Translations under genes and position numbers: made by a program | Shown here: positions 2,729 to 64,000 of the stretch, piece by piece | Layout of the letters: each line of letters begins with the position of its first letter | How positions within the stretch are numbered: the stretch's first letter is position 1 | Notes under the pieces: model-generated | The model's input: only the letters and a program-made list of their open reading frames with translations | Told to the model about the DNA's origin: nothing | Databases searched by the model: none | NCBI GenBank assembly: GCA_008690995.1 | Contig: VRMN01000001.1 | Coordinates: forward strand, 1,364,001 to 1,428,000 | Reading direction: 5' to 3' | Length of the DNA: 64,000 nucleotides | Origin: Porphyridium purpureum | Lineage: Eukaryota

Positions 2729-3381
2729 CCCGGTGTCCTTGCGTGAGAATTGCCGGGAGCAAACGCGGGAGTCGCCGGCTTTTGAAACGTGCTATTCTAT
2801 CGTTGTGGTTGCCCGAACCTGCGTTCTGTGAAGAAGTGCGTCGACGTCAGTCTTCCGTAGGCAACTGCGCTCTGTGACCGTCGCTCGTACTCCATGCTGA
2901 GGTTGCTGCTAGAGTCACTGAATGTGACGGAGGAATCGCGGACAGCGGACGCTCATGGCAGTCCCGCTCCCCGCCACAATGTGCGCCGAGGGAACAAGCC
3001 CACGCCCTCTGGCGCCCCAGCTCTTGCGCGCGTATGCCGTGCGCCATCCCGATCATCTTTCGCAGACGCGGTGGAAGCGCTGCATGCTTGACTTCCAGCG
3101 ATAGCGTGCCGAGCTCGCGCGGGCACAGACAGTGTAAAGCGCGGAGAGCTGTGTTTCGAGCGTGAGTGATAATCTCTAGACACCCGTTTACAGGCGATGC
3201 CAATGGAGCATCACAATCACCATCACCAAACCCCATTACTCCTGCAACGAAATCCGCGTCGTGAAGCGGCCTTCTGATATTCTCGGCTGCACCGGTACTC
3301 ACGAGCCGCTCCACGTCCGCACCAAAGCGCGCCAGCATATTTCTTTTCCTACACCAGCGAGTGCCGAGACGAAAATCCGGA

Positions 3382-4189
3382 CATGGATTAAAAGTGTTCC
3401 GGTCCGAGAGACGCCCTGGGTGTACACCCGGAGGTACGGCGTCTCGGAATTGTTTGAGGTACAGGGGCTTTTTCGCCCGCGTGGTTTTTTACCCTGTACC
3501 TCTGGTTTTGTGTATTGTTGTCTTTCGCCCCGAGGAGCCGGAGTCGCGTGTCCGAGGGAAGCAGGAGCCGCTTGGCGGCCGGCCGGCACCCATTGAGCCG
3601 CTTGCTGACGTGGCTGGCTGTGGCTTCGTTCTGTGGAACGAACGGAGGAAAGCCCAGCCTTTTGGGAGAAATAATTTCTCCCTTCCGCGTCAAGGACAGC
3701 AAGGACGGCGGGGTATATAATGGGCGCGGGCCTGTGCGGTTCCCCGGATTTTCTTTAGAGCGGAAGAAGAGAGGCAAGGGAGTAGGACACAGAGAATAAA
3801 AGAAGAGTTGTTCTTTGGTGTCGGGTGCCTGGGCGTGGTCGTCGGAAGGCGTGGGGCCTTTTGCTGAGCCTGTGTAGCAGAGCCAGCAGCACATCGTGTC
3901 TGGGGGGTTTCGGTGCTCTTAGAGCACTGAAGGCAGACGGCGGCTTTGTCCGTTACGACACCCTGCCCCTGTCGAGACCGGTGCTGTCTGTGCCGACGCG
4001 AAAGGCAATAGTAGAGGCCCTATACGTTGGATTTTCCACGCCCCGGGTATTCGTCGTCTGTGTTGTGTGCGTCGTGTGGTTGTGTTCTCTGTGCTGTGTG
4101 CGTCGTGTTGCTGGGGTTCGGTCATCTGAGAAGGGTTGTGTCATCCGGGTTCGTGCGCTTGTCATCATCAAGCGTGCGAGAATTTAAAG
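3382..4189 (+). repeat. 5' LTR of element 1 (808 bp)
   Basis: Direct repeat of 8574-9383; begins CATGGATT, ends AATTTAAAG; TATATAA at 3714-3720. Confidence 0.95.
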
Positions 4190-4201
4190 TGGTATCATCG
4201 C
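4190..4201 (+). promoter_or_regulatory. Primer-binding site of element 1
   Basis: TGGTATCATCGC directly abuts the LTR end; TGGTATCA is the usual tRNA-iMet-type PBS start; the same 12-mer occurs at 59800-59811. Confidence 0.85.
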
Positions 4202-4211
4202 ATCGGCGAAG

Positions 4212-5168
4212 ATGGATTCTGAGGGAATGGACGTGCAGGGCCTGCAGGGCGGCGCGTCGTGGATTGAAGCTTTCAACCAGCTTCATGCTCGTATCGGAGG
4301 ACAAGAAATGATGATTGTGCAGCTGCAGGAGGGAAACCGCCTCTTGCAGGAGATGCTGCAGAATGTGATGCATCAGGCATCTGTGTCAGCTGGTCCCGGC
4401 GAAACGGAAAGGACCGTTGCATCGCTGATTGGACGCAGCTTGAGAAAATACGACGGACAGCGCGACAAACTCGTTGTGAACGAGTGGTTGTCGAGGATGA
4501 AGCAAGACTTGGACATGTGCATGCCAGCTGGAGCGCTGGAGTCGCAGAAGGTGATCGTAGCGTCGCGCTTCTTTGAGAAGGATGCCGCGCTCCTGTGGGC
4601 AGCTCGCCCTGAGGAACAGAGGATGGCATTGGCCGAGTCCGGTTGGAATGCGTTCGCGAACTTCGTGCGGACGGCATTTGAGCCGCCGCAGGCATACCTG
4701 ACTGCTCGAACGAACTTGTATCAGCTGAAGCAGGGCAAGATGACTGTTGCTGAGTTTGAGCAGCGCCTGAGGATGGTGGCTCTATCCGTGGATAGTGTGA
4801 CGGATGCCGAGCTCAACACCATCTTCACTCTCGGCCTGAAGGAGAAGCTTCGCCTTGAGGTGGCGCGTCAGGACACGAAGACGCTGGAAGAGTCGCTGAG
4901 GGCGGCGTTGGCTGCGGAGCAGGTTGGTAGGTTTGGAGGAGACATGAGGGAGGCTTTTCATGGCGCCTCGAGTCCAAACTACCGGAACAGCTCGTCGTAT
5001 GCCGGGACGGCGCCAATGGATTTGGGCGTCGTGGAGAAACGCCAGCCGGAGAAGCGCAAGCGTGCGGACATGGGCAAAGTCAGATGCTACCATTGCGGGC
5101 AGCGCGGCCACATCAAACCCAATTGCCCAAAGCGGAATGGGCACTTGGCGGGAGGCCCGGAAAACTAA
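4212..5168 (+). CDS. gag: Retrotransposon Gag (capsid-like domain plus CCHC zinc knuckle)
   Basis: KYDG..EWL, LYQLKQGKMTVAEFEQR, PMDLG, and the knuckle CYHCGQRGHIKPNC. Confidence 0.93.
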   Translation: MDSEGMDVQGLQGGASWIEAFNQLHARIGGQEMMIVQLQEGNRLLQEMLQNVMHQASVSAGPGETERTVASLIGRSLRKYDGQRDKLVVNEWLSRMKQDLDMCMPAGALESQKVIVASRFFEKDAALLWAARPEEQRMALAESGWNAFANFVRTAFEPPQAYLTARTNLYQLKQGKMTVAEFEQRLRMVALSVDSVTDAELNTIFTLGLKEKLRLEVARQDTKTLEESLRAALAAEQVGRFGGDMREAFHGASSPNYRNSSSYAGTAPMDLGVVEKRQPEKRKRADMGKVRCYHCGQRGHIKPNCPKRNGHLAGGPEN

Positions 5169-8100
5169 AACCTCGAGGGAGAAGTTGGGAGGTGCACTCG
5201 AGGGGAACGGAACCTCCCGGGATGGGCTTTGTAGGTGAGGTCTGGCGCGCTGATGCGGCGTCGAGGTTGCTCTACAAGCGTGGAACTTTAGATGGCGAGT
5301 CTGTCCAATTTCTGGTGGACAGCGGAGCATCGCACAATTTTCTTGGATCTCGCTTTGTCGGCAGATTTGAAGGGCGCGAGAACGGAATGGTCAAGCTTGC
5401 GGGTGGGCAAAGTGTCTCAGTGCATGGCCCGGTGTTGCAGCATGTTGATCTTGGGTTCTGGAAAGGGCCGGTCAAGTTTTATGTCGGACCTCTGCAAATG
5501 GATGCAATTCTCGGGTGGGACTGGCTGAGTCGCGTGAACCCGAGGATTGATTGGCAGAGGGGTTCGATGGACTTGGAACTTGAAAATGTGGAAGATTGTG
5601 CGATGGTAAATGTCGTGGACGCTCTTTCCGAGTCAAGCGGAAATCAAGCGTACGATGGAGAAGAGGAGAGTGCCAGTGAAGAGGTCGAAGGAAAGATGGC
5701 CGGGATGGAACATGCGTTGACTCACATGCCGATGCGGGATGATTGTGAGACGTGTGTTGTGGCCAAGATCAAGAGCCGACCAGCAAGAAGGCTGGAGAAG
5801 GACTTGTCCACTTTGTCGTTCAATGACGAAGTTGGGATCGACCTGGTGGAGCCCGGACGTAACGTGGAAGCCATCGATGGAGCGAAGTACATGCTGACGC
5901 ACATCGATAGAGCGACGAGGTGGGCCACACTGGCAGGATTGAGAGCCAAAACGCATACGGCGGTTGCTGAAGCTTGGACAAGCGTGCAAGCCGGGCGAGG
6001 ATGGCCAAAGGTACTGAGGACAGATGATGGAAACGAGTTCAGGGGAAATGTGAGCAATTTGGTACGGGAGAATCTCGTGAAGCATGAGATTGGGGTCCCA
6101 CATAGACCGAATAGCCACGCTGAACAGGAACGTTTCCATCATACTTTGAATCAGGGGGTACGAGCAAATCTCCTGCAGTCTGGGCTGGGAAAGCGGTGGT
6201 TTTTGCATGCCGCTCAGCATTTCGTATTCATGTTCAATCGGCTGCACCCAGACAAGAAGTCTGGGAAGTCTCCGTATGAAATGAGGTACGGTGAGAGATG
6301 GAAGCGGGGGAAGGTAGCAGTACCATTTGGGTGCAAGGTGGTTTTCAAGAATGATCAACCGGAGAACAAGTATGCACCCAGAGGAAAGATTGGAGTCCTT
6401 GTTGGAGTTGCGGAGCATCCGCTGGCAATCTGGGTCCTTCCTCAGGAGGAGTGGACGAGTGCGGCACCGAAGCTGACTCGCACTCAGGACTTCAAGGCGT
6501 TCCCTGAAGTGTTTCCAATGCGGACTTTGGAAACAAGGGATGACGAGGAGGTCTCGGCACGTGAGGGTGAAATCGACTTTCACTCTAGGCAGGAAGAACC
6601 GGATAGTCAAGAGACTATGGTGTTGCCTACGAATACGGCCGAGGCGCGTGTATCCGGGAACTTGGAGGAGGATGTTCCCCTACCTATTGGAAGAAGGGGG
6701 AAACGAAAACCCAGGGTATCCTGGAGCCGGGAAGAGGATCAGGCCATCATGGATGGCTTACGGCTCTTTGGCTGGGGGAAGTGGGAAAGAACTCTGCAAG
6801 AATATAAGGCAGTGTTCCGCGATTCAAGAAACGGAAAGGATGTGCGAGCCCGGGCTCATAATATGGGCCTCTCGGAGGAAAATTGGAGGCAACGCGCAGG
6901 AGTTGCTCCAGAAACACCGCAATTGAACTTGACAACTTTGTTGCAGACGAGCCAAGCTCTGGCTTCTTCGGCTGGAAGAGAAGCCATGCAAAAAGAAGTG
7001 GACTTGATGATCCGATTCAAGGTATGGGATGAGCAACCTATTTCAAGGGAAGAAGCTCTCAAGGTCCCAGGCGCACGATTTGTGCGGACACACTTTATAT
7101 TCGGATTGAAGTTCGCTGAGCTTCCGGAGGAGTTTCGCAAGGTCAAGTGTCGGCTTGTTGCTGGTGGAAATAGGATTTGGGATGCCTCAGGGAAGGTCAC
7201 TCAGGATGTGTTTGACTATGAGGTGCCCGCGGGCCTGTCTGCGATCAGAATGCTGATAGCTTTGGCCGCTATCCTAGGATTGAAGATCGTATCGTTCGAT
7301 GTGACGTCGGCGTACTTACACGCTGACTTGTCAGGACCACCGACGTTTGCCATGTTGCCCCGACACGTTCCAGGAGGAGGTGATGGACTTGTCGTTCGCT
7401 TGAGGAGGGCGCTTTATGGCTTGCCAAGAAGCGGGTCTGACTTTTCCCAGGATGCCCGCAGAAGACTTCAAAAGTTCGGGTGGGATTTGATTCACGGCGA
7501 GAAGAACGTATACGTGAAAAAGATGGCGGGAAGTGCATCTGTTGCACTCCTAGCCTTGTATGTCGACGATGGTCTGCTCGCGTGTGTCGAGAAGGATCGG
7601 GGTGAGATATTTCGAGAGTTGAGGTCAGAGTTCCTCATTGAGAAGGAGCCGGAAGTCCTCTCGGAAGGAGCCCCGTTAAGGTTCCTAGGACTCACGATCT
7701 CGGAGTCGGCGACACGGTTTTCGTTGGGTCATGATCACTACCAAGCTTTGGTGGTGAAGGAATTCGAAGAAGAACTTGGGCAGGTGCTGCGAGCGGTGAA
7801 ATCACCAGGTGAGAAGATGAATGCTGACGCTGTATTGGATGTTCAAGTCGAACATGGACATCTGAAAATACGCGAGCATGTCGGGCGGCTGCTGTGGTTG
7901 GCCAGGACGGTCAGACCGGATATCTCCTATGCAGTTGGAGTGGTGGCTCGGTATGTGGATAGCTGGAACGTCGCAGCTGAGAGACTCCTGGTTCGCGTCA
8001 TGCAATACTTGAAGGTGCCTCGTGAGCCACTTGAGTATTTGCAGATGACGTCATTGAAGATCGGCGACGTAAGCGTCTTGGGCTATGCTGATGCCGACTT

Positions 8101-8583
8101 TGCTGGATGCCCGGAAACGCGCAAGTCAACGTCTGGGAGAGTGACGTACTTGGTCGCGGGTGGAAACAAGTATCTGGTCGATTGGAGCTCCAGAAGGCAA
8201 CGCTTTGTGAGCTCTTCGACCTCTGAGTCTGAGATGGCCGCTCTGGAAGAAGCGGTGCAGTTATCTTTGTTTCCGGCATTGTCGTTTCTTCGAAGCGTGC
8301 AAGAGGGGGATTATGCGTTGACCCTGCTTTGTGATAGTCAAGTTGTTCTCCGTGCGGTCGAGATGGGCTACTCGCCAAAGTTGCATCACATGGCAGTGAC
8401 CAGAGCCACGGACTTGGCGTGGATACACCAAGTTTGCGAGAAGCAAAAGCTGGTGAGATTGGAATATGTGAGGACGGGGAAAACGTGTCCGACTTGATGA
8501 CAAAACCTTTGTTTCCGGAAGGTCATATCAGGTGTTGGACTATGTTACGCGTCCCTCAGATCGGAAGGAGGAGCATGGATTAA
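5084..8583 (+). CDS. pol: Pol polyprotein PR-IN-(Myb)-RT-RNase H; 1-nt frameshift near 8476-8480 truncates the annotated ORF at 8497
   Basis: PR LVDSGASHNF; IN HHCC (HALTH..CETC) and D,D,E (GIDLVE, RTDDGNEF, AEQER); Copia-type RT (KCRLVAGG, DVTSAYLHADL, ALYGL, LYVDD, RPDISYAV); RNase H (YADADFAG..RKSTSG, STSESE). Restoring one base gives ..ENVSDLMTKPLFPEGHIRCWTMLRVPQIGRRSMD* ending at 8583, matching element 2. Confidence 0.93.
5159..5220 (+). promoter_or_regulatory. Predicted -1 programmed ribosomal frameshift signal (slippery heptamer plus H-type pseudoknot)
   Basis: G GAA AAC (5159-5165) sits just before the gag stop. 5-nt spacer; stem 1 CCTCGAG 5171-5177 / CTCGAGG 5197-5203; stem 2 GGGAGGT 5187-5193 / ACCTCCC 5212-5218. 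pol is in the -1 frame. Confidence 0.85.
8563..8573 (+). promoter_or_regulatory. Polypurine tract of element 1
   Basis: GGAAGGAGGAG immediately before the 3' LTR; identical at 62288-62298 in element 2. Confidence 0.9.
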
Positions 8584-9383
8584 AAGTGTTCCGGTCCGAG
8601 AGACGCCCTGGGTGTACACCCGGAGGTACGGCGTCTCGGAATTGTTTGAGGTACAGGGGCTTTTTCGCCCGCGTGGTTTTTTACCCTGTACCTCTGGTTT
8701 TGTGTATTGTTGTCTTTCGCCCCGAGGAGCCGGAGTCGCGTGTCCGAGGGAAGCAGGAGCCGCTTGGCGGCCGGCCGGCACCCATTGAGCCGCTTGCTGA
8801 CGTGGCTGGCTGTGGCTTCGTTCCGTGGAACGAACGGAGGAAAGCCCAGCCTTTTGGGAGAAATAATTTCTCCCTTCCGCGTCAAGGACAGCAAGGACGG
8901 CGGGGTATATAATGGGCGCGGGCCTGTGCGGTTCCCCGGATTTTCTTTAGAGCGGAAGAAGAAGAGGCAAGGGAGTAGGACACAGAGAATAAAAGGAAGA
9001 GTTGTTCTTTGGTGTCGGGTGCCTGGGCGTGGTCGTCGGAAGGCGTGGGGCCTTTTGCTGAGCCTGTGTAGCAGAGCCAGCAGCACATCGTGTCTGGGGG
9101 GTTTCGGTGCTCTTAGAGCACTGAAGGCAGACGGCGGCTTTGTCCGTTACGACACCCTGCCCCTGTCGAGACCGGTGCTGTCTGTGCCGACGCGAAAGGC
9201 AATAGTAGAGGCCCTATACGTTGGATTTTCCACGCCCCGGGTATTCGTCGTCTGTGTTGTGTGCGTCGTGTGGTTGTGTTCTCTGTGCTGTGTGCGTCGT
9301 GTTGCTGGGGTTCGGTCATCTGAGAAGGGTTGTGTCATCCGGGTTCGTGCGCTTGTCATCATCAAGCGTGCGAGAATTTAAAG
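8574..9383 (+). repeat. 3' LTR of element 1 (810 bp)
   Basis: By eye differs from the 5' LTR by one substitution and two 1-nt insertions; followed by TSD CCGGA. Confidence 0.95.
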
Positions 9384-10218
9384 CCGGATGCGCACTGTAC
9401 ACCCGTTGGTGTGTGTACCCTTAAACCGCGCGCATTTTTGTATGTGAGCGCGAAAGACAAAGTAACGCTTTCTACGGTGCGTGAGTGCGACGCCGTGGTT
9501 TAATTTTTCAAACTAAGCCACACGGGCGATGGACAAGCATGCGCGTGTCCGCGAAAACAGATGGAAAACAGAAGAAAAAATAAGGGAAAACCCCAAGAAG
9601 AACAAAAACCCCTGCTATGATCCGGGGAAGGGAAAAGCAAGAAAAAAGAGACACGGATCGATGAAAACCATGGTTGGTGAGAAGCTCCTGCCGCTCCTGC
9701 CGCTCCTGCCGCTCCAGTTGCTACAGTCGCAGTGCCGTTGGGTGTGGGTGTGGCTGTGGCTGTGGTGTTAGTACACGCGTGTCTGCGGCTAAAAGGGGGG
9801 AAGAGAATCACGCAGATGGCTCTATGCCCGCCGAGGGAATAGCAGCGTGTCCCCACCGATTTCTACCTCGTGCCAGCAGCTGGCTGTGCAGTGTGTGGAA
9901 GAACGAAGAACGCACACGCGATGCGCTTAGAGCAGGGGGGCGTTGGCCTACACCGTGCCTGCGGCTTCCCGCGTGTGCGATGGTTTACGCGCCCGTTCAG
10001 TCCGGTCTTGGTACACGAATTTGCGCGCGTGGACAGCACGCGTCCGGCATTGAAGAGGTCGCTCAGACGGTAAGTGGCATAAGAAGACGGACGGCGTGTC
10101 GGTGTTCGTCAGGTGCGGGGGACGCAGAGGAGAGTTGGGAACGGCAATAGTCAGGCTGGTGTGGCGGCACGTGCGCGGGAGTATCGAGGGTGGAGACAAA
10201 CGCATCCGATACCGAGCT

Positions 10219-59001: not shown

Positions 59002-59799
59002 CGTGGAATTTTAGGGTTCCGCCCCGAGAGACGCCGTAGGGTTTTGAGTACAAAACCCTAGAAAGTTCTATGATGAAAGATTGTTCGAGAAGCGTGATGA
59101 TCTCGGACCTGCGAAATGTTTGTCATTGTCGTTTTGTGTGGCCTTGTGCAAAGGTCAAAGGCCGGCCGAAGCTTCTGGATTCGTTCTTGACGCGCCCTCC
59201 CGGCCATTTTCCGGATACGTGGCCGGCTGTGGTTGCGAGTTGTGGAACGAATCAAAACCTGTGGTGGAAATTCGTCCTGTTGGAGAAATTTGTTCTCCCG
59301 TCCTTGCTGGAAAGAGCAAGGACGAAGGGTATAAAAGGACGAAGGGGCAAGCTGGTTCCCAGGAATTTCCAGGTCAAGGTAGAAGAAGAGGTAAGGGCAA
59401 ATAGAATAAAAAAGAGAATTGGTTAGTTGGATTGAGGCAGTCGTTGGAAGACTTGGGTTGGATTTGCGGGAGAGGCACGCTAGCGTGTTGTGCGAGCGGA
59501 TATCGGTCTGGAGTGTTTTTAAAAAGGCAGCTGGGGTTTAAACGTACCTTCCATCACCCTTCACTTGTCAAGACCGGTCCACTCCCTCTCGTAGTCCCCT
59601 ATAAGTTGAATTTTCTGTCCTCTCTTCCTTTCTAGCCACTTTTCTCTGATTGTCCCGCTTGTCCTTCCGTTCGTTTCGGTGTGTCGGTTCGTCGTCGGTT
59701 TGTCAGTTTCCGGGGTGTGGCGGTTTCCAGTTCCTGTTATCGGTGAAGCGGTCCGGTTTTGTTGATTCGGTTACAAAGCAGAAAGGGAGAAATTCCAAG
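59002..59799 (+). repeat. First LTR of element 2 (798 bp)
   Basis: Begins CGTGGAATT, ends AATTCCAAG, followed by TGGTATCATCGC; TATAAAA at 59330-59336. Confidence 0.9.
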
Positions 59800-59828
59800 T
59801 GGTATCATCGCCCGGTTGTTTGGAGAAA

Positions 59829-62311
59829 ATGGAAAGCCATGAAATGGAAATGAATGTCCCGCAGGAGAATGCGGCATGGATTGAGGCAGCTAATCAGCTG
59901 CATGCGCGCATTGCGGGACAGGAGATGATGATGGGAATGAGTTCAAGGGAGATGTGGGGAGACTGGTGCGTGAACACCTCATAAAGCACGAGGTGGGGAT
60001 TCCGTACAGGCCAAACAGTCACGCTGAACAGGAGCGGTTTCACCACACGCTGAATCAGGGAATCCGTGCGAATCTTGTGCAGGCCGGACTCGGGAAGCGT
60101 TGGTTCATGCACGCCGCGCAGCATTTTGCGTTCATGACGAATAGACTTCACGTGGGCAGGAAGTCTGGAAAGACGCCGTTTGAATTACGACATGGTGAAA
60201 AATGGTCGCCGAGAAATCTTAGTTTGCCATTCGGGTGCAAGGTGGTCTACAAAGATGATCAGCCTGACAATAAGTATGCACCGCGAGGAAAAGTTGGCAT
60301 TCTCGTCGGCGTTGGAGAGCATCCGATGGCACTTTTGGTGCTTCCTCGGGATGACTGGACGAGTGAGACCCCAAAAGTAATTCGCACTCAGGATTTTAAG
60401 GCATTTACCCATGAGTTCCCTTTAAAAGGAATTGAACGAGAGATGGTGAGCCTTAGCCAGCAGGAAGAGTTGCCAGAAGTGGACGAACCATCCGCGGTTG
60501 AAGCGGTGCAGGACTTGGATCGTCGTATCGATGCTCTCAGAACTAGAGAAGCGGAGCTTGAGAAAGAGATCGAGGCATTGAAAGTGAGGGTGGTTGACGA
60601 AGAACGGGCAGCAGGCACGGGTGGTCCAGTGGCGATCCCACAGTTGAACTTGACGACTTTGCTGAAAACTGGAGCGGCGTTGGCGTCTGAGCAAGGACGA
60701 GCCGCGATGGAAAAAGAAGTCAAATCCATGCTGAAATTTGGGGTATGGGATGAGAGTCCCTTGACGCTGGAGGAGGCCCGGAGGCAACCTGGTGCTCGTT
60801 TCGTACGCACACATTTCATTTTCGGTCTGAAATTTGCTGAGATGCCGGAAGAATTTCGCAAGGTGAAGTGCCGCTTGGTGGCCGGGGGAAACAGGATATG
60901 GGGGTCCGATGGAGCTGCGACGAATGACATTTTTGATTATGAGACGCCTGCTGGTTTGTCAGCTATCCGAATGATAATAGCTGTGGCTGCAATTCTGGGC
61001 CTTCAGATTGTTAGCTTCGACATCAGTTCGGCATACCTCCATGCGGACCTGTCTGGGCCACCTACGTTTGCATATTTACCGCGTGAAATTTGTGATTCAA
61101 AAGGCACAGTAGTCAGGCTGAGAAAGGCGCTGTATGGCTTGCCCAGGAGCGGCTCGGATTTCTCACAAGATGCTCGGAGGAGATTGCAAAAGTTCCAGTG
61201 GAAGCTCGTGCATGGTGAAAAGAATGTGTACGTCCGGAGAAATGCTGCAAGTTCGTCAGTTGCATTGCTGGCTCTGTACGTGGATGATGGTCTATTAGCC
61301 TGTCGAGAGGAGGAACGCCCAGGAATCATCGAAGAATTGAAACAAGAGTTTCTCATGGAAAAAGCACCAGAACTATTGACGGAAGGGGGATCCTTGAGAT
61401 TCCTGGGGACGAGCATTTCCCTCAAAAATGGGAGCGTGAGTTTGGCGAATCAAGAGTATCAAGATGTGGTCGTTCGGGAATTTGAGCAGGATATTAGACG
61501 CGTATTGCGTGCCGTGAAGTCACCATCTGAGAAGCTAGATGGCGAGGAAGTTCTGAATTATCAAGTCATCTGGAAGACTTTGAAAGTAAGAGAACACGTC
61601 GGGAGGCTGATGTGGCTCGCCAGAACGGTTCGACCTGACATTGCGTATGCAGTCGGTATGATTGCCCGGTACGTTGACAAGTGGAATATGGCAGCAGAAA
61701 GGCTGCTCGTACGAGTCGTGCAGTATTTGAAAACACCTCGGGAAGCATTGGAGTATCACGTGTTGGGGAATCTCAAGGAAGGCATCAGAGGGGTGAACAT
61801 TGTTGGATACACGGATGCTGACTTTGCTGGTTGTCCAGAGAGTCGTGTGTCGACTTCTGGAAGAGCAACGTACTTAGTTGCTGGAGATTACAAGTACCTA
61901 GTGGATTGGTCTTCAAGAAAGAAGCGTTTCGTGAGCTCGTCGACTTCAGAGTCGGAGCTGGCCGCCCTAGAGGAAACTGTGCAACTCTCGTTGTTTCCTG
62001 CATTGTCTTTCTTGCGAAGTATACGTGACGGAGAGTTCTCGGTGATTTTGATGTGTGACAATCAAGCTGTGATGCGAGTAATAGAGATGGGGTACTCGCC
62101 AAAGTTGCATCATATGGCGATAACCCGAGCAACAGATTTGGCCTGGTTGCATCAGGTGTGCGAAAAGCAGAAACTTGTGAAACTGGTATTTGTGAAGACG
62201 GACGAAAATGTGGCGGACTTAATGACCAAGGCCTTATTTCCGGAGGGCCACATTAAGTGCTGGGAGAAGTTACGCGTCCCTCAGACCGGAAGGAGGAGCG
62301 TGGAATTTTAG
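59829..62311 (+). pseudogene. pol: gag N-terminal stub fused out of frame to a 5'-truncated pol (half IN, coiled coil, intact RT-RNase H)
   Basis: WIEAANQLHARIAGQEMM (gag) joins DDGNEFKG (integrase) at 59924-59933; ORF 59954-62311 aligns with element 1 Pol. Confidence 0.9.
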
Positions 62312-63077
62312 GGTTCCGCCCCGAGAGACGCCGTAGGGTTTTGAGTACAAAACCCTAGAAAGTTCTATGATGAAAGATTGTTCGAGAAGCGTGATGATCT
62401 CGGACCTGTGAAATGTTTGTCATTGTCGTTTTGTGTGGCCTTGTGCAAAGGTCAAAGGCCGGCCGAAGCTTCTGGATTCGTTCTTGACGCGCCCTCCCGG
62501 CCATTTTCCGGATACGTGGCCGGCTGTGGTTGCGAGTTGTGGAACGAATCAAAACCTGTGGTGGAAATTCGTCCTGTTGGGAAATTTGAATTCTCCGTCC
62601 CGCTGGAAAGAGCAAGGACGAAGGGTATAAAAGGACGAAGGCGTTGGTTCCCAGGAACTGCGTCAAGGGGTAGAAGAAGAGGGGCAAGAAATAAAAAGAG
62701 AATTCAATAGCTAATTGAGCATTAGCCGGAAGACTTGGGTTGGATTTCAGGAGAGGCACGCGAAGCGTGCTGTGCGAGCGGGATATCGGTCTGGAGCGTT
62801 TTTAAAAAAGGCAGCTAATTTAAACAAAACCTTCCATCACCCTTCACTCTAATAAGACCGGTCCACTCTCCTCGTAGTCCCCTATAAGCTGGAATTTTCT
62901 TGTCCCTCTTCTAGCCACCTCTTTCTGATTGTCCCGCTTGTCCTTCCGTTCGCTCTCGGTGTGTCGGTTCGCCGTCGGCCTTGTCAGTTCTGGGTGCGGC
63001 GGCTCTCAGTCCTGCTATCGGTGAAGCGGTCCGGCTCTTTTGCTGATCTGGTTACAAAGCAGAAAGGGAGAAATCGC
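62299..63077 (+). repeat. Second (shared) LTR of element 2; 3' end and PBS degraded
   Basis: Repeat of 59002-59799: near identical for about 280 bp, then many small indels. Confidence 0.85.
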
Positions 63078-64000
63078 GGTAATTACCGCCCGGTTGTTTG
63101 AGAAAATGGAAAGCCATGAAATGAGGCACGAATGTCCCAGTAGTGAGGAAAATGCGGTGATGGATTAGGCAGCTAATCAGCTGCATGCGCGCATTGCGGG
63201 ACAGGAGATGATGATGGGAAATGAGTCTGCTGGAGATGGGGAGATTCGGAGAGGCAGAACACCTCATAAAGCACGAGGTGGGGATTCCGTACAGGCCAAA
63301 CAGTCATGCTGAACAGCAGCGGTTTCACCACACGCTGAATCAGGGAATCCGTGCGAATCTTGTGCAGGCCGGACTCGGGAAGCGTTGGTTCATGCACGCC
63401 GCGCAGCATTTTGCGTTCATGACGAATAGACTTCACGTGGGCAGGAAGTCTGGAAAGACGCCGTTTGAATTACGACATGGTGAAAAATGGTCGCCGAGAA
63501 ATCTTAGTTTGCCATTCGGGTGCAAGGTGGTCTACAAAGATGATCAGCCTGACAATAAGTATGCACCGCGAGGAAAAGTTGGCATTCTCGTCGGCGTTGG
63601 AGAGCATCCGATGGCAATTTTGGTGCTTCCTCGGGATGACTGGACGAGTGAGACCCCAAAAGTAATTCGCACTCAGGATTTTAAGGCATTTACCCATGAG
63701 TTCCCTTTAAAGGGAATTGAACGAGAGATGGTGAGCCTGAGCCAGCAGGAAGAGTTGCCAGAAGTGGACGAACCATCCGCGGTTGAAGCGGTGCAGGACT
63801 TGGATCGTCGTATCGATGCTCTCAGAGCTAGAGAAGCGGAGCTTGAGAAAGAGATCGAGGCATTGAAAGTGAGAGTGGTTGACGAAGAACGGGCAGCAGG
63901 CACGGGTGGTCCAGTGACGATCCCACAGTTGAACTTAACGACTTTGCTGAAAACTGGAGCGGCGTTGGCGTCTGAGCAAGGACGAGCCGCGATGGAAAAA
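63078..64000 (+). pseudogene. Second copy of the deleted internal region (partial)
   Basis: Repeats about 59810-60714, including the same gag/IN junction. Confidence 0.88.

Follow-up and report, generated by a model that had tools for sequence, protein, structure and literature searches.

A Porphyridium purpureum LTR retrotransposon with a Ty3/Gypsy-type capsid and protease and a Copia-type integrase, reverse transcriptase and RNase H

Described lineages with shared features

Copia (Pseudoviridae) and Gypsy (Metaviridae) retrotransposons are regarded as separate virus families, and Gag and protease (PR) are assumed to track the reverse transcriptase (RT). According to the available text of PMC6317226, REXdb dropped elements showing chimeric signs as likely mis-predictions and documented recombination within Copia alone; with very few exceptions, Copia elements retain the LLS protease (available text of PMC2774666). 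Here we compare described systems with an LTR retrotransposon of Porphyridium purpureum on the forward strand at 3382–9383 of a 64,000-nt window (the whole stretch of DNA analysed). With Ty1/Copia it shares the order PR-integrase (IN)-RT-RNase H (RH), an RVT_2 RT, a Copia RNase H and SH3 domain, a 5-bp target site duplication (TSD) and tRNA and polypurine tract (PPT) priming sites, but it differs in its Ty3-type capsid, an ILG rather than LLS protease, a predicted −1 frameshift, a compact zinc finger, C..G termini and a Myb domain. With Ty3/Gypsy elements, among them the chromovirus-like P0098 and the Ty3, PEG10 and Arc capsids, it shares the capsid, PMDLG-CCHC and the ILG protease, whereas its RT is RVT_2, its integrase precedes RT, and a chromodomain and GPY/F-type tail were not found. 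Gmr1-like Gypsy elements also have a Gypsy-type front and an integrase ahead of RT (PMC2774666, in the part available), but Gmr1 is a rearranged all-Gypsy element, whereas IN, RT and RH here are Copia-side (RVT_2). PyRE10G of Porphyra, compared here together with the GalEa clade, is reported as a red-algal Copia element with a Gypsy-like module, and two ORFs are a further shared trait, but that module is the integrase, and the primer binding site (PBS), finger and termini of our element are unlike the published GalEa marks. Troyka likewise has non-canonical LTR ends that start with C and finish with G (available text of PMC12440569), but these are CG..CG, with a 3-bp TSD and Gypsy order. IN, RT, RH and the compact finger are shared with an unnamed Copia lineage (P0007, P0107, P0128, P0113 and others, from JGI, MMETSP, ENA and Logan), the members of which differ in having a protease of the LLS type and a Gag unrelated to this one.

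Structure and state of the element

The element is a young LTR retrotransposon that extends beyond the 4212–8583 interval of the preliminary description. Its 5′ LTR (3382–4189, 808 nt, 5′-CATGG...TAAAG-3′) and 3′ LTR (8574–9383, 810 nt) are identical at 807 of 808 aligned bases, with two 1-nt gaps, and are flanked by an unstranded 5-bp TSD, CCGGA (3377–3381 and 9384–9388), for which the unoccupied site, a single CCGGA, was observed in one run (X5). Loose ends of other insertions map the LTR termini to 3381/3382 and 4189/4190 (one contig ends at 4187, 2 nt before the LTR end) and, together with the empty site, fix the element termini. These ends, read from the DNA for families A and B, are CA..AG here and CG..AG in family B rather than TG..CA, a feature missed previously; with their C..G termini, such elements would therefore be missed or mis-trimmed by annotation tools based on TG..CA. 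The PBS (TGGTATCATCGC, 4190–4201) directly abuts the 5′ LTR and the PPT (GGAAGGAGGAG, 8563–8573) the 3′ LTR. The primer is presumably initiator tRNA-Met; no tRNA gene was found in the window, so the primer has no host match there. The near-identical LTRs and the filled/empty polymorphism are indirect signs of an autonomous, active element, for which particle formation, frameshifting and transposition are putative.

Gag (318 aa, 4212–5168) and pol (open 4931–8497) occupy two overlapping frames, with pol at −1. Gag comprises an N-terminal coiled coil, a Ty3-type capsid (about 4419–4910), PMDLG (5013) and one CCHC (5085–5126), with further motifs KYDG (4446) and LKQGKMTVAEF (4725). A GGAAAAC heptamer (5159–5165) just 5′ of the gag stop is where a −1 ribosomal frameshift into pol is predicted; the fold 3′ of it was no better than shuffles (z −0.32). 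Pol contains an ILG-type aspartic protease (5282–5533; LVDSGASHNF 5312, DAILGWDWL 5501), an integrase (5711–6418) with a compact HX3HX6CX2C finger (5711–5755), D..D-X34-E core and Copia-type SH3, a Myb/SANT domain (6713–6862), RT (7076–7768; RLVAGG 7151, DVTSAYL 7298, ALYGL 7409, YVDD 7559) and RNase H (8090–8583; DADFAG 8090, RKSTSG 8120). The Gag, protease, finger, RT and RH motifs and the domain order quoted in the preliminary description are all present; the Myb domain 3′ of the integrase had been missed. It matches Pfam Myb_DNA-binding at 5.8e-5, slightly under the curated cut-off, and its best match is TRF1 (PDB, E 5.8e-4); no Chromo domain was found after the integrase (Pfam, E ≤ 1), Myb standing there instead. 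The pol frame of the window copy is broken near 8475–8497, and the RNase H end reaches its stop at 8583 in a different frame. Contigs of all four runs differ from the window in this region, and the RNase H end is unbroken in 10 of 15 family-A proteins examined.

Affinities of the two halves

A Pfam scan reported to E ≤ 1 divided the element as the preliminary description had predicted, with Gypsy-side models on the 5′ half (Retrotrans_gag 1.3e-10 and Ty3_capsid 2.4e-8, both exceeding the curated cut-off; Asp_protease_2 1.5e-5, gag-asp_proteas 1.8e-5) and rve (2.9e-4) and RVT_2 (8e-17) on the 3′ half. In the same scan the Copia models Retrotran_gag_2, DUF4219 and Pol_BBD had no match in the element and RVT_1 none in pol. 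The element has the domain order of Ty1/Copia, and not the RT-RH-IN order and RVT_1 of Gypsy, whereas its front lacks an LLS-type protease (here DAILGWDW) and a Copia-type Gag and has the Ty3-type capsid and ILG protease characteristic of Ty3/Gypsy. Pfam names alone are not diagnostic, because Asp_protease_2 also matches three LLS relatives weakly (P0140, P0154 and P0181) and one standard Copia (P0021) has a Retrotrans_gag entry.

Neither Gag nor protease scored best to Copia models: the Gag profile gave 66.8 bits on Gypsy Gag versus ≤10 on 32 Copia-side Gags, and the protease profile E 7.7e-15 on Gypsy versus 9e-7 on standard Copia and 4e-4 on LLS relatives. In the protease tree (45 rows; 125 columns, bootstrap not fully settled), five Porphyridium and two Gypsy rows lie on one side at 100/99, a grouping favoured by the fact that these two Gypsy references, the only ones, were both found as best matches to this Gag-PR. 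Forcing the Porphyridium proteases to group with their LLS pol relatives was rejected (p-AU 0.027), and the family A/B protease adjoins the chromovirus protease (P0098, 43 of 98 residues identical) at 99/92. A Gag-PR search of 7,995 long candidates returned only two matches outside Porphyridium, both RVT_1 (Gypsy) polyproteins and one with a chromodomain, and a Gag-only search just three among 7,998 candidates. All Atlas matches to Gag-PR scored <0.9 (top 0.89), viral contigs scanned four times, with Gag, pol and two Gypsy queries, yielded no relative, and PDB sequence searches gave mainly zinc knuckle matches for Gag, none below E 0.02, and DDI1/ASPRV1 at E about 0.05 for the protease. Top Foldseek matches of the Gag structure model (pLDDT 65.6) were dArc1, Ty3 and PEG10; in the capsid fold comparison PEG10 scored Z 13.4 (rmsd 2.2, 20% identity) and the Drosophila Copia capsid ranked third at Z 11.4 (rmsd 9.4, 9%), and as modelled, capsid fold alone cannot tell the two superfamilies apart. 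By sequence, Gag and protease are confirmed as Ty3/Gypsy-type.

The RT trees were built without a Gypsy outgroup. The RT-RH tree (36 rows) recovered a 25-row compact-finger clade at 100/99, within which the Porphyridium rows sit, their sister being LLS elements; rows provisionally labelled by motif as GalEa-like (P0054) and CoDi-like (P0046, P0048) lie outside it. The Porphyridium integrases fall outside standard Copia (99), among LLS relatives. The module trees are incongruent, as the preliminary description had expected, with the protease grouping with Gypsy and IN and RT-RH within a Copia lineage, and these trees confirm the assignment of IN, RT and RNase H as Copia-type within a divergent compact-zinc-finger Copia lineage. 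The compact finger was rejected as part of the swap, since LLS relatives have it too; judging from this distribution, it was inherited from the Copia lineage that supplied pol and is a hallmark of that lineage.

Families sharing the layout and its origin

The Gypsy-front/Copia-pol layout occurs in at least five P. purpureum families, all from P. purpureum where named, and is seen in P0005/P0094, P0099, P0103/P0250 and P0253 (pol identity 35–37% for the last three). Gag, PR and RT motifs occur together in 11 of 15 family-A gene models examined, and all 14 of the family-B proteins examined that have the ILG-type protease also carry RT. Family B, which has a coiled coil instead of Myb, is present in the window as a tandem array (element 2; 59002–64000, forward strand, running off the window), with an LTR at 59002–59799 (ends CGTGG...CCAAG) and the same PBS start and PPT as the 3382–9383 element. 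The preliminary description had cited this copy as showing a family architecture rather than a nested insertion; the architecture is borne out by the five families and the family-B proteins, but element 2 was rejected as sole proof, being an internally deleted copy in which the Gag start is joined to the integrase and the protease is missing.

None of 54 outside pol relatives scores as having this Gag or protease: 26 score as Copia LLS protease (11 of them not in the training set) and 28, many partial, have no scorable protease. In four sister families, missed previously, an RT of this clade is joined to a standard Copia Gag-PR-IN, an indication that the RT-RH clade swapped its front end at least twice. 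The five Ty3-front families fail to group together in any of the RT, IN and protease trees (two changes each), so a single origin is not supported by the trees.

We consider it very probable that the Ty3/Gypsy-type capsid and protease were united with the Copia-type IN-RT-RH by an old inter-superfamily recombination at the protease/integrase boundary; the Pfam split and the trees support the module exchange proposed in the preliminary description. It is quite unlikely that no swap occurred and that a Ty3-like Gag and ILG protease are ancestral features kept in this Copia branch, LLS and Copia Gag having arisen or spread elsewhere. The capsid fold is common to all LTR retroelements and almost all proteases outside Copia are of the ILG type (PMC2774666, available text), but the Porphyridium rows are nested among LLS branches with standard-Copia-like proteases (E 1.4e-13), so several independent LLS gains would be needed, and the family A/B protease is nearer to that of the chromovirus than ancient retention predicts. 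The frame break and the internally deleted neighbouring family-B copy might be expected of a single nested insertion, a dead recombinant copy or a misassembly that placed a Copia back behind a Gypsy front, a reading with next to no probability left: it is refuted by single contigs spanning the PR/IN join in 4 of 4 runs (runs X21–X24, with almost none of the search words, lie outside this set), by the family-A gene models that combine Gag, PR and RT motifs and by five divergent families, and one open frame runs from protease to RNase H between matching LTRs and TSD.

It is also very unlikely that the element belongs to a Copia clade already described as having Gypsy-like traits (GalEa/PyRE10G or CoDi), in which case the mix would already be known. 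GalEa occurs in Porphyridium cruentum ESTs (CoPorcru1/2) with two ORFs (available text of PMC3587641), and a Porphyra copia element with a 'gypsy-like integrase' is reported in print. However, the GalEa PBS TGGTAGCAGAGC (PMC3587641/PMC5445492, in the parts available), HX4HX30CX2C finger and TG..CA ends are all absent here, as is the chromodomain of CoDi-A. The integrase here is Copia-side and the foreign part is Gag-PR. The rows provisionally labelled GalEa-like and CoDi-like also fall outside the RT-RH clade; the comparison with these two clades covers such rows and published motifs. No description of this hybrid was found in the literature searched; genome-paper supplements and Repbase entries may already name the families.

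We give about even odds to a broader proposal of an undescribed lineage. Its RT-RNase H clade would have changed front ends repeatedly, acquiring a Gypsy Gag-protease, perhaps on more than one occasion, and in a separate event a standard Copia Gag-PR-IN; its integrase would insert untrimmed G-ended termini, guided by a TRF-like Myb domain that had been captured. Under the favoured reading of an old recombination, Gag would be translated from the first ORF and Gag-Pol via −1 frameshifting at GGAAAAC; the Gypsy capsid would build the particle accompanied by its own cognate protease, which would cleave Gag and free IN and RT. The Copia RT would be primed by tRNA at TGGTATCA and by the purine tract. 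Since PBS and PPT lie flush against the LTRs and the inserted termini are precisely C..G, it is likely that the integrase joins blunt cDNA ends untrimmed, at a terminal G where CA is the norm, with a 5-bp duplication; Ty1 integrase, too, joins blunt ends that have undergone no 3′ processing (PMC8487063, available text). The Myb domain probably reads DNA or chromatin to direct insertion, like the chromodomain elsewhere. That the extra terminal dinucleotides necessarily came from the Gypsy parent was rejected, the evidence pointing neither way.

A young, multi-copy, multi-family hybrid indicates that capsid-protease is a module exchangeable across the Copia/Gypsy divide, and, if the broader proposal is true, pol-based classification would hide hybrids of Gypsy capsid and Copia enzymes. 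One small, culturable alga here combines a single RT clade with two different front ends, a natural control that allows tests of whether a capsid depends on its cognate protease, RNA and RT, and of the DNA-end requirements of an LTR integrase. A metagenome scan yielded two loci from 98 candidate stretches, one being a distant Copia (26%) without usable LTRs. The Gag C-terminal EN* is also present in P0094, P0095 and P0096.

Structure and polymorphism of the family A element

The window DNA is eukaryotic and gene-dense in character, and its pol protein matches a record named Porphyridium purpureum with 100% identity over 99% of its length. The family A LTR retrotransposon spans 3382–9383, as delimited by an LTR pair and a target-site duplication (TSD), with comparison of the LTRs placing them at 3382–4189 and 8574–9383 (807 of 808 aligned bases identical, two 1-nt gaps). 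Since CCGGA is present on either flank and an empty site with one CCGGA occurs in sequencing run X5, the insertion is polymorphic and young. The primer-binding site (PBS; TGGTATCATCGC) starts at 4190, directly abutting the 5′ LTR, while the purine tract ends at 8573, directly abutting the 3′ LTR; the reading frames are gag (4212–5168) and pol (open from 4931 to 8497, in the −1 frame relative to gag). At the RNase H end of the window copy the frame is lost near 8475–8497, where contigs from 4/4 runs mismatch the window; as this end is also unbroken in 10 of the 15 family A proteins examined, the loss is put down to a fault in this copy or the assembly. Run X1 (record 3) also contains a 6.4-kb contig that is ~90% like family A at both ends (window 4041–4189 and 8402–8560) and probably represents a further subfamily.

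Affinities of the front and back halves

The preliminary description proposed a Gypsy/Copia chimera at 4212–8583, and all motifs that it quoted were found in the element. The Gypsy-type front is borne out by Pfam, with Gag matching Retrotrans_gag (1.3e-10) and Ty3_capsid (2.4e-8), the protease (PR) matching Asp_protease_2 and gag-asp_proteas, and no match to the Copia Gag and Pol_BBD models at E ≤1. Among 7,995 long candidates, the Gag-PR region matched four proteins, two from Porphyridium and two Gypsy polyproteins (both with RVT_1, one with a chromodomain). A profile built from the proteases of five Porphyridium families scored 72.6 and 25.0 bits on the two Gypsy proteases and ≤15.5 bits on 38 Copia-side proteases, and profile–profile E-values were 7.7e-15 for Gypsy, 9e-7 for standard Copia (leaving out 4 of 22 rows that yielded no protease motif) and 3.8e-4 for the element's own pol relatives, the compact-zinc-finger Copia lineage outside Porphyridium. 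The protease tree (45 rows) placed the five Porphyridium and two Gypsy rows on one side (100/99), a grouping whose weakness is that it has two Gypsy references only, both best matches to the query; a constraint uniting the Porphyridium proteases with the pol relatives was rejected (p-AU 0.027). The Gag profile gave 66.8 bits on Gypsy Gag and ≤10 on 32 Copia-side Gags. First Foldseek matches of an AlphaFold model of Gag (pLDDT 65.6, 6 sequences) were the dArc1, Ty3 and PEG10 capsids, and PEG10 led in VIA-align (Z 13.4, rmsd 2.2, 84 aligned), but the Copia capsid came third (Z 11.4, rmsd 9.4, 150 aligned), so that fold alone cannot decide the superfamily. Judged from profiles and trees, the front half is Ty3/Gypsy-type.

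The back half, comprising integrase (IN) and reverse transcriptase-RNase H (RT-RH), matched RVT_2 (8e-17). A full HMMER search with pol against 1.84 billion representatives gave the best 150 of 31,757 matches. RT-RH trees (189 rows, 53 rows, and 36 rows with bootstrap) split off one clade from standard Copia (100/99 in the 36-row tree), whose members have a compact H..H.P...C..C finger in common. Outside the Porphyridium branch, 26/54 clade members scored at least 20 bits with a profile of the LLS (Copia) protease type (15 in the training set, 11 outside), 28/54 had no scorable protease and 0/54 reached that score with either Porphyridium profile (protease, Gag). Nested within this clade, the Porphyridium branch (85/96) is sister to the LLS elements P0007/P0107/P0108 (82/91, 36-row tree), and in the IN tree the Porphyridium integrases fall among LLS relatives, apart from standard Copia (SH-aLRT 99). 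Because pol is nested among LLS-bearing relatives in both trees, Gag-PR is the foreign part. The module trees are incongruent, as had been anticipated, with PR siding with Gypsy and IN and RT-RH lying within a divergent Copia lineage; the back half is classed as Copia-type, and the putative recombination join is located between protease and zinc finger.

Peddigari reportedly described, in 2008, a Porphyra copia element with a gypsy-like integrase. In literature outside Repbase and most subscription journals, neither a Copia pol carrying Gypsy Gag-PR nor any account of these Porphyridium families turned up. Published work covers the LLS/ILG (Copia/Gypsy) protease divide, Gmr1 and the CoDi-A chromodomain (PMC2774666), GalEa marks and CoPorcru (PMC5445492, PMC3587641), Troyka (PMC12440569), and recombination within Copia, with chimeric-looking elements taken out (PMC6317226). 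The literature compared also includes PMC2806351, PMC5029228, PMC2836005 and PMC2939329.

Hybrid families and probable module exchange

Single contigs crossed the PR/IN join in 4/4 runs (X1, 5492–7650; X5, 4971–5873; X10, 3382–5873; X14, 5071–7668), and five divergent families share the layout, in agreement with the earlier claim of a family architecture rather than a one-off insertion. Protein clusters comprise 17 members for family A and 16 for family B (15 listed each). Three further families (P0099, P0103/P0250 and P0105/P0253), with 35–37% identity to the pol query among the best 150 of 31,757 matches, encode Retrotrans_gag, Ty3_capsid, an ILG-type protease, the compact finger and RVT_2. 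Their records name P. purpureum, and the layout is attributed to this species only where records do so; P0095, P0100, P0102 and P0152 are nameless, the last with a protease of the same type as the Porphyridium hybrids. We consider it highly probable that the Gypsy/Copia hybrid with non-canonical ends is real, young and multi-family, the original observation being confirmed and its interpretation supported.

No tree unites the five families in a single clade, and the protease of A and B lies nearer to that of chromovirus P0098 (99/92) than to those of the other three families; Gypsy Gag-PR may therefore have been captured once or several times. The joining to pol could have occurred by template switching between co-packaged RNAs or, alternatively, by DNA recombination within a nested pair. 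P0256, P0258, P0259 and P0260 (P. purpureum) carry Retrotran_gag_2, Pol_BBD and a standard Copia integrase, with RT-RH falling inside the Porphyridium branch that holds the hybrids (36-row tree); this pattern is best read as a second module swap, within Copia, placing a standard Gag-PR-IN on the hybrid RT-RH clade. Like the element termini and the Myb domain, this swap was overlooked in the preliminary description.

Termini, expression and the family B array

Family A ends are 5′-CATGG..TAAAG-3′ and family B ends 5′-CGTGG..CCAAG-3′, the latter readable as TG..CA with two extra kept bases per side. Loose ends from other insertions were found for family A at 3381/3382 (3 contigs), 4189/4190 (5 contigs) and 4187 (one), with none in runs X10 and X14, and for family B at 59002 and 59799 (2 runs each) and 59802 (one). 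Ty1 has no need of 3′ processing, which Ty3 and retroviruses require, according to PMC8487063. We infer untrimmed (blunt) joining at the terminal G by the element's integrase.

Gag-Pol would be made by a −1 frameshift at GGAAAAC (5159–5165); four related proteins share the Gag C-terminus EN*, and the fold beside the predicted site was not significant. Pol may instead be expressed from an internal ATG or via splicing. With frameshifting, the Gypsy capsid would assemble the particle and its cognate protease would process Gag-Pol, cDNA would be primed by tRNA-iMet, to which we presume the PBS motif belongs, and untrimmed cDNA ends would be integrated, with the Myb domain guiding insertion targeting. 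This domain follows the family A integrase (Pfam 5.8e-5; TRF1 E 5.8e-4), Myb-like stretches having weak Pfam matches in P0099, P0101, P0116 and P0110/P0256 and being judged by eye in P0109, P0250 and P0260. Family B has a coiled coil in its place, and P0032 carries a chromodomain. The slot after integrase thus seems to gather targeting domains (Myb in family A, CW finger, chromodomain in P0032).

Within the compact-finger Copia lineage, P0133, P0134, P0157 and P0198 have a CW zinc finger of histone-reader type ahead of RT, while in one sub-branch (P0135, P0140, P0154) the Gag region has CCCH zinc fingers instead of a CCHC knuckle. The Copia polyprotein P0113 has a C-terminal AAA_28 domain (E 4.6e-13), and in a distant metagenomic Copia (L001:1051–5415) protease and integrase are separated by a long insert with an NPPF motif, which we take to be typical of adenine methyltransferases.

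In RNA run X19, one contig covers the right half of the family B LTR (59362–59779) at a depth of 2754 vs ~75 alongside, starting ~25 nt past a TATA-like box; this weakly hints at an abundant short transcript from the LTR, as contigs cannot reveal starts or levels. Family B, which has the same hybrid layout, forms a tandem array at 59002–64000 of internally deleted units with LTRs in common, the middle LTR being 92% alike with a decayed PBS. A contig from run X1 represents an undeleted form ~1.66 kb longer, and P0077 suggests a similar array elsewhere.
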